Shown one piece after another: positions 15,007 to 17,923 of a DNA stretch of 64,000 bases. This DNA comes from a virus, in IMG/VR virus record IMGVR_UViG_3300045825_000261, positions 21,175-85,174 of that record. One strand, 5' to 3'. The notes beneath the pieces are model-generated. The model made no database searches and was not told the origin of the DNA. It worked only from the letters and a program-made list of their open reading frames with translations. The position numbers and the translations under genes are program-made. Within the stretch, counting starts at the first letter, position 1. Each line of letters begins with the position of its first letter.

Positions 15007-15297
15007 ATGAAAACATTTGACGTTGCCGCATGTGCGGACTTCCTTAAAATTCACCGAACCACAGTCCTAAAGCTTGTGGCGTCTGGCGACCTTCCAGGCG
15101 CAAAGATAGGCCGCGCCTGGGTCTTTCTTGAAACAGACTTAATCGACTATATACGCAACGCCATTCGCTCACAGAGTCACGTCACAACTAAGCCACAAGT
15201 GACTGAAGCTATGCGAGCAGAGCCAATAGGTCGTAAGCGAAAGGTTGCGCCAGACCTCTCTGCATACACGTCACCACATCTTTCGCGCCAAATCTGA
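15007..15297 (+). CDS. excisionase-like HTH protein
   Basis: CADFLKIHRTTV...GDLPGAKIGRAWVF; convergent with integrase. Confidence 0.85.
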   Translation: MKTFDVAACADFLKIHRTTVLKLVASGDLPGAKIGRAWVFLETDLIDYIRNAIRSQSHVTTKPQVTEAMRAEPIGRKRKVAPDLSAYTSPHLSRQI

Positions 15298-16446
15298 CGC
15301 CCTAAGATTTGCATAGCGACCCAACATTTGAGTGCTGCTGTGTCCGGTGATCTTCATAATCTCAAAGTCCGACATTTCCGTTCTCTCGAAAAGTCTACTG
15401 GTCGCCTCGTGGCGCATGTCGTGAAAGTTTAAATCAACACAGCCGGCCGCCTCAAAGATTCTGGTGAACTGGTGCGACAGTGCCGATGTAACTTTCTCAT
15501 ATCGCTCCTTTGGCAAAAGCATAGCGATCTTCTTCTCAGCGAGCCATGGGAATAGATACCCACCGTCAAACGTAAACAACTCCATTCCTCTTCGCTTTGC
15601 AAGAACGTGCTCCGTATAGGTAATCAGGCTCGCGATGGCAACAGACGACAGCGGCACCTGTCTGCTTTTGCCATTTTTGGTTTTTTTAAGAAAGATTGTC
15701 GCATTCTCAATGTCCACCATGTCCATTTCAATTGAATAGATTTCACTGAGCCGCATTGCTGATTCAACAGCAAGATCAAACACGCACTCGATAGCCGCTT
15801 GGTAATCAAGCTTAAACGCCCTTTCTCGGCCCTCTGGCTTAACCTTGTTCATCACCGCCCTAATTCGCTCTTCCTCACCAGACTCAAGGCGTCTGATGCG
15901 CCCTGCGCTGTGCTTAACCTCCAACGTGTCATCTTTAGCAATGACGGCCGCATCTGCTGGCGTATAGGCGGAATACCCCTTCGGCAACAGTCTGAGAGGG
16001 TTTGGAGCAAGCTCCGCAACACCCTGCGTTATTGCCCAGTCAAAACACCGAGCAAGCGCACCGACATTATGTCTGATTGTGGATGGGGACAAATTAGCCA
16101 CGCGCTTCATCGAGCTTATCCATGACTCGATCCACTTGTAGTTGACGAGTCTTATACTTACACCGCCAACCTTATTAAGCAAACCACTCAGGTAATCAGT
16201 ATCGCAGGACGTGACGTGACGCTCGCGCATATATTCACGAATAAGATCGCCAATTGAAGAATACTTCTTCACATCGTCAAGAAGCTCTGGTGGCACGATA
16301 CCGGCATCGAGCAACGACTCGACATGTTTGCCGTAAGCGATCGCAGCCTCTTCCGTATCGAATGTCCAATACCACGGCTTTTCTCTTACTGCTTTTCTTT
16401 TCACGGTCAACTCAAAGCGACCGCCTCTTGGCTTAATTGACGCCAT
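15271..16446 (-). CDS. int: tyrosine integrase
   Basis: AMRLSEI, KTKNG, FHDMRHEATS, ITGH, RY catalytic set. Confidence 0.95.
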   Translation of the reverse strand: MASIKPRGGRFELTVKRKAVREKPWYWTFDTEEAAIAYGKHVESLLDAGIVPPELLDDVKKYSSIGDLIREYMRERHVTSCDTDYLSGLLNKVGGVSIRLVNYKWIESWISSMKRVANLSPSTIRHNVGALARCFDWAITQGVAELAPNPLRLLPKGYSAYTPADAAVIAKDDTLEVKHSAGRIRRLESGEEERIRAVMNKVKPEGRERAFKLDYQAAIECVFDLAVESAMRLSEIYSIEMDMVDIENATIFLKKTKNGKSRQVPLSSVAIASLITYTEHVLAKRRGMELFTFDGGYLFPWLAEKKIAMLLPKERYEKVTSALSHQFTRIFEAAGCVDLNFHDMRHEATSRLFERTEMSDFEIMKITGHSSTQMLGRYANLRASDLARKMW

Positions 16447-16513
16447 AACGACTCCCGTTCGCCCACATGGGCTGATTATTGTAACTCACGTCCTTGCACA
16501 AAAGTATGGTTAG

Positions 16514-16727
16514 TCGGTAGGTTCTGCCTACCGAGCAGCCGACTTGATGCGACTTTTGGCGACTTTAGACGATAATGGGCAAATAAAAAGCCGCCCGAAG
16601 GTGGCTTAACTTGTTGATTTTGTGGTGCATTTTGTTTTTTACTTCAGATGGTGAGTGGATTTGCAATCCGTCCGGTTATCTTTAGAATCAGTAACTTACA
16701 AGCTTCGCCTACTAACTTGCCTACCGA
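16514..16727. other. intact attP
   Basis: Core GGATTTGCAATCC at 16657-16669. Arm repeats GCCTAC(C/T)(G/A)A at 16526, 16707, 16719 and inverted at 16514. IHF-like sites at 16607-16619 and 16686-16698. Phased CGACTT at 16540/16550/16560. Confidence 0.75.
16585..16607 (-). terminator. intrinsic terminator
   Basis: Minus strand AAGCCACC-TTCG-GGCGGCTTTTT. Confidence 0.75.
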
Positions 16728-16731
16728 TATT

Positions 16732-16805
16732 TGGAGGTGCGTCCCAGAGTCGAACTGGGCTAACGTGATTTGCAATCACGGGCATAACCGATTTGCTAAC
16801 GCACC
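16732..16805 (-). tRNA. tRNA-Cys(GCA)
   Basis: 74 nt; GGTGCGT/ACGCACC acceptor stem, U73, encoded CCA, anticodon arm CGTGA-TTGCAAA-TCACG, T arm CCCAG-TTCGACT-CTGGG. Confidence 0.95.
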
Positions 16806-16822
16806 ACAAACCAACGGACAGC

Positions 16823-16851
16823 ATAGTACCTTATACAGTGATCTTCGTCCA
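16823..16851 (-). promoter_or_regulatory. putative tRNA promoter
   Basis: TGGACG-17-TACTAT followed by GC-rich discriminator. Confidence 0.5.
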
Positions 16852-17262
16852 CTGCTCTTCCCAAGAGCTCGCCTCAACATCTTCGTCTATCCAGATCAAG
16901 CGATCACAGGCAACATCAAGCTCGCACCACAATAATCCAAAAACCTGACTAATCATCCACTCAAGATCAAACAACTGCTGTGGCTTACCGCCAATCTCGA
17001 TCCAGAACACGTACTTGCAGGCTATATGTACAGGTTGAGATTTTAAAATATGCACCGCATACTCCGATAGCTCACCATTAACAACCATAGACCTCGCATC
17101 ACTCCACGTCAGAGAGATAACGCTATCGGGGTACATAGATGTGTCCAATCCAAATAAAACTGCGGCAGGACAAGGGCGAGGCAACTTCTCAAAGCCGCGA
17201 CGCAACTGTCCTGCCGTCATTCTTGCGTAATTGTGTCCAGTCATACTTCCTCCTGGACACAA
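16831..17262 (-). CDS. hypothetical protein resembling a degenerate tyrosine-recombinase catalytic fragment
   Basis: AAVLFGLDTSMYPDSVISLTWSD resembles box I without Arg; start may be ATG 17244. Confidence 0.55.
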   Translation of the reverse strand: MCPGGSMTGHNYARMTAGQLRRGFEKLPRPCPAAVLFGLDTSMYPDSVISLTWSDARSMVVNGELSEYAVHILKSQPVHIACKYVFWIEIGGKPQQLFDLEWMISQVFGLLWCELDVACDRLIWIDEDVEASSWEEQWTKITV

Positions 17263-17269
17263 GTATAGC

Positions 17270-17923
17270 CTAGTCGCGTCTTACGGGAACATGAATGGCG
17301 CTTGCCATGACTAGAGTCAAGACCTGATCCATAACAATATAAGCATTCATTTCATCAAAGCTTGGAATGTAAAGATCATACTTGTCTTGAGTGCTTTTGG
17401 CGTTAATTGACCAGCCGGCCTCAACTGACAGCATTACATTAAAGCGTGCCGAATAAGTCAATAGTGCTTTATCGTTTACCGATGGGTCGGTTAAGCTAAT
17501 CTCGGACAAGAAGCGACGCAGAAATCTGTCACCAATGACTTCTGGTGGGCAGTCAATAAATAGAGAGATGAACTTAATTCCATTTTGTTTTGCGAACTCC
17601 TTAATCTGCTTTTTACCTTCAGGCTCAACGACAACGACAACGCTTTTACCAAGCGCAAAAATTCTCTCAGTTTCGGCAACAGAGACGCCGTAGTGGTTTC
17701 CGCTAAACTGCACACTCTCCACAAACTCACCTCTTGCAGCGCTTGCGGCAAATGTAACAGCGTCAACGAAATAGTAATCGACGCCATCAACTTCATCTGG
17801 GCGAGGCGTGCGCGTGGTTGTGGAAATTACACTCTCGAAGCCAAGCAGCCCAATCATCATTTCCTCAAGCGTTGATTTGCCGGCACAGGATGGGCCAGTA
17901 AGCGTAACAATCATTCTACTCAT
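17270..17923 (-). CDS. guanylate kinase-like (d)NMP kinase
   Basis: GPSCAGKST, STTTRTPRPDEVDGVDYYFV, GNHYG. Confidence 0.9.
   Translation of the reverse strand: MSRMIVTLTGPSCAGKSTLEEMMIGLLGFESVISTTTRTPRPDEVDGVDYYFVDAVTFAASAARGEFVESVQFSGNHYGVSVAETERIFALGKSVVVVVEPEGKKQIKEFAKQNGIKFISLFIDCPPEVIGDRFLRRFLSEISLTDPSVNDKALLTYSARFNVMLSVEAGWSINAKSTQDKYDLYIPSFDEMNAYIVMDQVLTLVMASAIHVPVRRD

Follow-up and report, generated by a model that had tools for sequence, protein, structure and literature searches.

A putative tRNA-dependent integration module with an anticodon-arm-only attP and a host-like, stem-recoded tRNA-Cys in a large phage

The analysis concerned the integration module of a phage, which lies on a 64,000-nt stretch of viral DNA (the window, to which all positions refer) comprising bases 21175-85174 of the linear, 85,174-bp IMG/VR record IMGVR_UViG_3300045825_000261 (estimated completeness 81%). 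The module contains a gene for a tyrosine integrase (Int) of 391 amino acids on the minus strand (15271..16446; Pfam PF00589, E 1.1e-23), a predicted phage attachment site (attP) and, on the same strand, a complete gene for a tRNA-Cys(GCA) with an encoded CCA end (16732..16805), which is the predicted replacement tRNA. The latter was identified by ARAGORN and as a full-length match to Rfam RF00005 (51.2 bits); its predicted fold has a free energy of -26.2 kcal/mol, and none of 200 shuffled sequences folded as well. It is the sole tRNA gene in the window according to ARAGORN, and also in the whole 85-kb record. Two contigs from a wetland metagenome (57,030 and 44,012 nt) are 100% identical across the stretch, and as they overlap inside the tRNA gene, a genome size of about 100 kb is suggested.

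The core of the attP is CGGATTGCAAATCC on the minus strand (16657..16670), which corresponds to the anticodon arm of a tRNA-Cys only and is the predicted crossover site. It is a single exact match in the window, and the chance expectation for an exact 14-mer in 2 x 64 kb is about 5e-4 (hand arithmetic). The core starts 61 nt past the tRNA gene's 3' end in the same orientation, and the block GATTGCAAATC is common to the core and the tRNA loop, with a start-to-start distance of 109 nt. A first-pass annotation of the sequence had described a complete tRNA-Cys about 60 bp from the core, with the same orientation and loop and a different stem, and this description was verified, the stem being CGTGA/TCACG. 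It had also stated that neither a T arm nor an acceptor half follows the core, and the searches agree: Rfam detected no partial tRNA after the core at E<=10, and the 39 nt past the loop matched the 3' part of the host tRNA no better than shuffled sequences (424 of 2000 were as good). No tRNA 5' half was seen by eye before the core. Because tRNA sequence is missing from both flanks, strand exchange anywhere in the 14 bp would leave no intact hybrid tRNA, and the short core would rebuild no functional tRNA at the predicted attL or attR.

The core is embedded in elements that are arranged as in a working attP. The P' arm on the int side contains the inverted pair TCGGTAGG/CCTACCGA (16514-16534, minus strand; pair I7 of the repeat search) and three direct CGACTT-type repeats with a 10-nt spacing (16540-16572, minus strand; repeat families D1 and D4), while the P arm contains a direct pair of arm-type copies, reading GGTAGGC and AGTAGGC on the minus strand, which abut the tRNA 3' end (16704..16727, minus strand; families D4, I6 and I8). 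The arm repeat TGCCTACCGA was found at 16525-34 and at 16718-27, with an inverted copy at 16514-21. Two putative binding sites for integration host factor (IHF) flank the core. On the int side, AATCAACAAGTTA (16607..16619, minus strand) matches exactly WATCAANNNNTTR, which we take to be the IHF consensus and which has seven exact matches in the whole 64-kb window, this one included; the site on the tRNA side (16686..16698, plus strand) has one mismatch and was identified by eye. A terminator-like hairpin with a U-run lies between the core and int (16583..16607, minus strand; -12.1 kcal/mol, z -2.49). It was missed by a simple terminator scan because its stem holds an A.C mismatch. The claims that arm repeats and IHF-like sites flank the core and that a terminator lies on its other side were thus corroborated. 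In related loci a hairpin is present at the equivalent position, arm repeats also flank the core on both sides (by eye), and equivalents of the int-side IHF-like site were seen by eye in the Curvibacter phage PCA1, the Pseudomonas phage 8P and the phage contigs L077 and L165. An excisionase-like helix-turn-helix open reading frame (ORF) of 96 amino acids (15007..15297, plus strand; PHROG excisionase families, E 6.6e-6 to 3.6e-4) is divergent from int and overlaps its 3' end, and PCA1 has an excisionase gene at the same position. The Int of the window has retained every column that is invariant across 19 homologues. By these sequence features (intact Int, an xis-like ORF and repeats on both arms) the module looks functional.

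The distance between the tRNA-side IHF-like site and the 14-bp core, called mini-core below, is 16 nt, compared with 15 nt between the equivalent site and the anticodon arm in PCA1. The mini-core has an IHF-like site and arm repeats on either side, and the P-arm repeats lie between it and the tRNA gene. The mini-core is located about 220 nt before int, within the range of 185-303 nt of classic cores in the integrase family, whereas the loop of the complete tRNA is 329 nt away. The PCA1-like spacing, the bracketing repeats and the distance to int therefore point to a crossover in the mini-core and not in the complete tRNA, and judged from this layout the mini-core is the attP core, with the complete tRNA just outside the P arm. 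As a separate observation, the segment 16619-16631 after the core is 92% complementary over 13 nt to 16798-16810, i.e., the 5' leader and the acceptor 5' strand of the tRNA. A rough estimate puts the expected number of such pairs in 421 nt at about 0.05, and the complementarity may be due to chance or to a fossilized acceptor 3' strand.

To characterize the target of the integrase family, loci of related integrases were compared. A search of viral contigs with the single integrase did not yield a confirmed relative, and an alignment of the 19 homologues was then used as a profile. Of the 245 loci analyzed, 80 each were from viruses, genomes and metagenomes, and the other five were the window, L165 and three phage records; a few duplicate records are included (L168=L005, L187=L035, L235=L080, L242=L077, L189=L036 and L201=L046). 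At 94 loci a tRNA-Gly(GCC) gene is followed by a complete tRNA-Cys gene that ends 143-290 nt before int on the same strand, which is a classic attL with a rebuilt tRNA. A complete tRNA-Cys was also present at 24 loci at which the upstream sequence was too short to show a tRNA-Gly, or at which none lies within 900 nt (the Cupriavidus type). A free attP that carries the 3' half of tRNA-Cys (anticodon arm, T arm, acceptor and CCA) without the 5' half was found at 17 loci, tRNA-Val(TAC) at 18 loci, and a core-only attP at 10 loci, which represent 7 distinct cases. The remaining loci had less than 230 nt of upstream sequence (70) or were of other types (12). The genome search for integrase homologues that had been proposed together with the first-pass annotation thus yielded a target: as deduced from these loci, the integrase family targets the anticodon arm of tRNA-Cys. 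In a metagenome-assembled genome (MAG) of Sideroxyarcus, the classic attL and attR are 57.5 kb apart. Two attR sites were examined, and in both of them the identity extends on the left to position -4 (CGGA). Three loci (L183, L098 and L112), which have a complete tRNA-Cys but lack a tRNA-Gly upstream of it, were considered as a possible third type of attP and were rejected; they are classic attL sites in Cupriavidus-like chromosomes, and the upstream host sequence is common to them.

The classic attPs of PCA1 (OP588919), of L005, L011 and L017, and of the Sideroxyarcus MAG prophage belong to homologous integrases with 33-51% identity to that of the window. They have the same target arm as the window and the same order of parts, namely arm repeats, IHF-like site, core, IHF-like site, hairpin, arm repeats and int. 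The difference is that the classic sites restore tRNA-Cys and carry the tRNA from the anticodon arm through CCA, whereas the window has neither T arm nor acceptor strand, so that its attP does not contain the tRNA from the crossover to the 3' end. Conversely, the window has a complete tRNA-Cys gene within 900 nt upstream of the core, while none of the 17 classic attP loci has one, and the one classic genome that was scanned as a whole (G054, the record of L005) has no tRNA gene at all. A related layout was observed for the closest named phage integrases (45% identity), those of the Pseudomonas phages 8P and vB_PaeM_USP_18: their attPs have the same layout, with the 3' portion of another tRNA (a T arm and ...CACCCACCA) in place of tRNA-Cys sequence, and ARAGORN calls no tRNA there.

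The phage tRNA was compared with host tRNAs. The nearest tRNA from an attL site is that of the Sideroxyarcus MAG (67 of 74 positions), and Sideroxyarcus is a member of the Gallionellaceae. Therefore, the 74-nt phage tRNA was compared with 317 species genomes of this family as defined by GTDB. Matches were found in 177 genomes, with 28 matches in 27 genomes at 95% identity and none higher. Of these 28 matches 26 were examined, and each is identical to the phage tRNA at 70 of 74 positions. The four differing positions are constant in all 26 cases (linear positions 27, 28, 40 and 41) and represent two compensatory pairs of the anticodon stem, so the cloverleaf is preserved. The chance that all four differences fall within the ten stem positions is 1.8e-4. 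The stem is CCGGA...TCCGG at 17 host loci and CTGGA...TCCAG at nine, compared with CGTGA...TCACG in the phage tRNA. Both host variants have an exact block of 14 bp in common with the core, compared with 11 bp for the phage tRNA. By sequence comparison, the phage tRNA is a copy of the tRNA of the likely host that is altered in the anticodon stem only, and the host is probably a member of the Gallionellaceae. Most genomes of this family have one full-length tRNA-Cys match, with the proviso that they are incomplete MAGs. The gene order at the 26 loci is Gly>Cys>Leu(TAA) in 17 cases and Gly>Cys>Gly in six cases (three were cut by the end of the sampled stretch), in agreement with the earlier remark that cysT often lies in a Gly-Cys-Leu operon.

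The two recoded pairs differ in their conservation. The -3:+3 pair is G:C in all 56 unique attL tRNAs and at all 26 host loci, and it is changed only in the tRNA of the window. The -4:+4 pair is C:G in 55 of the 56 attL tRNAs and in none of four phage-borne tRNAs (Fisher 1e-5; the rows are not independent). It was considered as a strict determinant of the integrase, and this idea was weakened by the presence of T:A at nine of the 26 host loci and in one attL tRNA, indicating that the pair is polymorphic and not an absolute requirement. When each phage tRNA was compared with the nearest attL tRNA, a concentration of differences in the anticodon arm was found for the window (versus L160, p = 0.045); it was not significant for the phage contigs L080, L077 and L165, with the nearest attL tRNA serving as a proxy for the host. 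As further observations, the host tRNA-Cys sequences (L258-L263 and L267-L286) are otherwise identical over 74 positions and form two variants that are one compensated stem pair apart. This pair, which is polymorphic among the hosts (C:G at 17 loci, T:A at nine), is the one that differs in all four phage-borne tRNAs. One genome (G183:C22, L264) has, at a distance of 0.9 kb from an intact Gly-Cys-Gly cluster, a second, degenerate tRNA-Cys-like copy with a further tRNA-Gly behind it. This copy, which seems to stem from a local duplication, was rejected as an instance of the layout of the window.

The layout is not restricted to the window. A complete tRNA-Cys, 103-109 nt loop to loop from a core without T arm or acceptor strand, was also found in three other phage contigs, L077 (105,979 bp, with terminal repeats), L080 (89,634 bp) and L165 (81,388 bp). 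Accordingly, four of the seven distinct core-only attPs have an adjacent tRNA-Cys, compared with 0 of 16 distinct classic attPs (Fisher p ~0.004 by hand arithmetic; the rows are not independent). In a FastTree phylogeny of 216 integrases the layout requires four changes, and for three of them the branches that make the change necessary have a support of 95% or more. The sister of L165 is PCA1 with its classic attP, and the integrase of the window falls into a clade of eight Logan-only proteins. Several core-only members are on long branches, and their placement is unsure. Within these limits, the tree indicates that the core-only layout with tRNA recurs in phages on separate integrase branches. 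A decayed tRNA 3' half after the core was significant in L165 only (32 of 2000 shuffled sequences as good); it was dropped for the window, for L077 (1354) and for L080 (1792).

The preferred reading, which we regard as reasonably probable, is that a temperate phage of about 100 kb, probably with a Gallionellaceae host, integrates by means of the module in the window and uses tRNA-dependent lysogeny. Int, together with IHF-like bending at the two sites and the arm-type sites, would recombine the 14-bp core with the anticodon arm of the host tRNA-Cys. Because the attP carries nothing of a tRNA beyond the anticodon arm, the host gene would be split. The attL would then consist of the host 5' half followed by the phage hairpin/terminator and int, and the attR of the phage tRNA-Cys, 61 nt of P arm, the orphan host 3' half and the downstream host tRNA (Leu or Gly). 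The complete tRNA lies directly next to the P arm and has the same orientation, and it would therefore land about 100 bp upstream of the old gene position and, given the host gene order, at the head of the orphaned downstream tRNA. If expressed, it would supply the cysteine tRNA to the lysogen. The two compensatory stem changes, by which the match to the core falls from 14 to 11 bp, would plausibly keep Int off the phage's own tRNA. That this phage family lysogenizes by integration also follows from a CobT-like neighbor gene, which has 50-60% identity between the window and two proviruses of 108-110 kb; it is also present in L077 and in a classic-attP phage, and is lacking in L080.

Several results weigh against this reading. 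It had been proposed to map attL and attR and to look for a split host tRNA-Cys with the phage tRNA at the junction, and such a form was not found. Among the 175 loci whose upstream sequence measures 230 nt or more, none shows a tRNA-Gly followed by a broken tRNA-Cys before int, and the double signature of the predicted attR was absent from all 50 provirus records with the integrase at the record edge and from all 317 Gallionellaceae genomes. A scan of viral contigs for the double signature yielded only L165, in its free form, and two unrelated tandem tRNA-Cys pairs. The 317 genomes also lacked a tRNA of the phage type (best identity 95%), and integrase relatives were detected in 10 of them, with 53% identity at best. 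The contigs of two wetland runs read through the core without any change, joint or loose end, although contigs drop rare variants and this evidence is weak. The closest integrases (P0002-P0009, 53-65% identity), several of which are encoded on contigs of about 77-108 kb, lie outside the 245 loci. At the tRNA itself, the promoter that the first-pass annotation had assigned to it could not be confirmed, as no sigma-70-like site was found on the minus strand between 16300 and 17400; the best candidate found by eye matches eight of 12 consensus positions. The right half of the core deviates from the family consensus at +4, and the tRNA of L080 shares 12 bp with its own core, which weakens the idea of immunity to the integrase for one of the three sister cases. 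Lastly, three of the seven core-only attPs (L035, L106 and L214) are exceptions that lack the tRNA: L214 has none within the 246 nt available upstream of the core, and L035, whose complete genome of 111,592 bp has terminal repeats, contains 0 tRNAs, and its integrase match begins at residue 59. A stripped core can thus be a sign of module decay as well. Taken together, the earlier claim that integration splits the host tRNA-Cys and that the phage tRNA substitutes for it is partly backed, by the core-only attP, the host-like tRNA and the target of the family, and no integrated copy was found in the loci, records, genomes and contigs scanned.

The searches also revealed other forms. Five of the 50 provirus records have a single match to loop plus T loop, four of them near the end opposite int, as in a classic attR. 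A sixth record (G035) has two such matches that are 2.8 kb apart, and in no record are two matches about 105 nt apart. In the wetland runs, contigs of the phage break only inside the tRNA (16735-16759), because the tRNA-Cys genes of other organisms share words there. Loose ends at 16726-16732, 16763 and 16805-16807 were considered as att junctions and rejected, as they belong to tRNAs of other organisms.

The main rival explanation is a decaying or unused module, in which the mini-core is the remnant of a classic attP after loss of the 3' half, the phage is lytic or episomal, and the tRNA-Cys serves translation or counter-defense in lytic growth. We regard it as unlikely but as an explanation to be taken seriously. 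It would account for the failure of all scans to detect an integrated form, for the mismatched stem of the terminator and for L035 with its stripped core and missing tRNA. The near-twin of the latter, L106, is on a 112,962-nt contig in the isolate assembly of Massilia sp. TN1-12, with an integrase match from residue 42; as the contig is about phage-sized, the element is possibly maintained without integration. In L165, the sequence that follows the core still resembles a tRNA 3' half, which indicates that such a path of decay is real. Against decay of the module in the window stand the invariant columns of Int, all of which are kept, the presence of the xis-like ORF, and the arm repeats and IHF-like sites, which are paired on both arms and at family-typical positions, respectively. 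In addition, the only tRNA of the record is of the very isotype that the integrase targets and abuts the attP, and the same pairing is found in three other phages on different integrase branches.

That a functional module integrates at another chromosomal site bearing the short core, with a tRNA unrelated to integration, is very unlikely. The core has only 14 bp, and secondary sites can be used by short-core integrases according to PMC10865867, but it equals exactly the anticodon arm targeted by the family and matches both variants of the likely host over all 14 bp, and the combination of a core-only attP with the cognate tRNA would have to be a coincidence in four phages. A further very unlikely alternative is a crossover in the complete phage tRNA gene with the mini-core as an accessory or a fossil, for although the phage tRNA shares the 7-nt loop and 2 nt on each side with host tRNAs and its identity of 100% outside the stem would make hybrid tRNAs nearly wild type, the bracketing elements and the distance to int single out the mini-core, and the phage tRNA lacks the -3:+3 G:C pair found in 56 of 56 targeted host tRNAs.

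The mechanism of the preferred reading, tRNA-dependent lysogeny, has already been published. It was described in actinobacteriophages by Guerrero-Bustamante and Hatfull (mBio 2024; PMC10865867), with Fionnbharth/K4, Cluster L, Gaia and Gordonia CQ2/DL phages as examples. According to that paper, these phages have common cores of 8-17 bp in the anticodon region without tRNA reconstruction, the cognate phage tRNA is required for survival of the lysogen, the trait has several independent origins with relatives that have classic attPs, and the phenomenon may also occur beyond actinobacteriophages. The likeness to the window extends to a lambda-like tyrosine integrase, arm-type sites flanking attP, close relatives with classic tRNA-restoring attPs and several independent origins on the integrase tree of the family. 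Even stripped-core relatives without tRNA are present in both groups, namely L035 and the actinobacteriophage Daredevil, which has neither reconstruction nor a tRNA and forms clear plaques (PMC10865867). The two cases differ in that the actinobacteriophage system was established by junction sequencing, tRNA deletion and plasmid assays, whereas the window is a proteobacterial case predicted from sequence, with a probable betaproteobacterial host, a Cys isotype and a phage of about 100 kb. Furthermore, the tRNA of Fionnbharth overlaps a protein gene on the opposite strand and is "not closely related" to that of its host (PMC10865867), whereas that of the window lies directly beside the P arm, in the same orientation, and is host-identical outside the two recoded stem pairs. 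In the predicted attR it would be upstream, by about 100 bp, of the orphan 3' half and the downstream host tRNA. The tRNA abutting the attP and the near-perfect host copy with recoding of the stem only may thus be new. The accessible text of PMC10865867 does not appear to discuss a protection of the phage tRNA from Int, and the word "self" is absent from it. Full-text searches of the literature found nothing on a recoded stem of a phage tRNA or on such phages in Gallionellaceae, and among the titles and abstract openings listed for prophage integration at tRNA-Cys none pointed to the layout of the window.

A similar case has been reported for Sinorhizobium meliloti, in which tRNA substitution by prophage-related sequences was found in silico; the authors liken it to tRNA-dependent lysogeny (PMC11476347, PMC12429752). 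As proposed for the window, a proteobacterial host tRNA is reportedly replaced by an element-borne tRNA of the same isoacceptor. However, S. meliloti is an alphaproteobacterium and its elements are different from that of the window, and the introduced tRNAs are described as similar to those of unrelated species (PMC11476347, PMC12429752), whereas the tRNA of the window is a near-identical host copy.

The earlier claim that the changed stem stops targeting by the integrase is in line with the reduced identity with the core, and it fits less well with the 12 bp kept by L080. As a pattern, integrase-proofing is well supported in the window; as a mechanism it is putative, and so is its generality. 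A more tentative proposal, which we consider possible though doubtful, is that replacement tRNAs are actively integrase-proofed, with changes only in stem pairs that are read in the core, and are placed to rebuild the host operon in situ. The layout would then have arisen several times in proteobacterial phages, and the C:G/T:A polymorphism of the host stem would be a possible host side of the same conflict. If integrase-proofing is true, the phage's own Int, and perhaps the related integrases of superinfecting phages, would be unable to cut the sole tRNA-Cys of the lysogen.

Confirmation of integration would have several consequences. Beyond Actinobacteria, tRNA-dependent lysogeny would then also be a trait of large phages of environmentally important iron-oxidizing Betaproteobacteria, and it would have evolved repeatedly within one integrase family. 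The host and phage tRNAs, which are two stem pairs apart, would represent a natural experiment on the base pairs that an integrase reads. Programs for prophage detection that look for a repeated tRNA 3' end at each border would place the ends of these prophages wrongly, and a lone phage tRNA beside an integrase gene would best be read as a lysogeny gene and not as a help for codon usage.

In the surroundings of the module nearly all long ORFs are on the minus strand. Upstream of the tRNA lies an ORF of 143 amino acids (16831..17262, minus strand), which matches phrog_4693 (function unknown; E 1.8e-10) and has no Pfam match. A similar C-terminal motif was seen by eye in a frame that ends just upstream of the attP in L005, L011, L017 and L035, which are relatives of 110 kb. 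A near-identity search with 15200-17300 against phage GenBank records did not yield a match. Many family members have a conserved GTTGACGCGAGT-like motif 20-40 nt before the start codon of int, which in the window is GGACGTGAGTT (16478-16491) and was found at equivalent positions in L005, L011, L033, L035 and L092. A role in the regulation of int or in its ribosome loading is possible. The core-only site of L035 and L106 lies about 119 nt upstream of the integrase match of L035, and the halves of its stem are unpaired (GCGGA...GCCGT), the arm being a hybrid of two common host arm types. In both L035 and L106 this core is directly followed by the GTTGACGCGAGT motif, which is normally located just before the start of int, and a second copy of the motif lies upstream.

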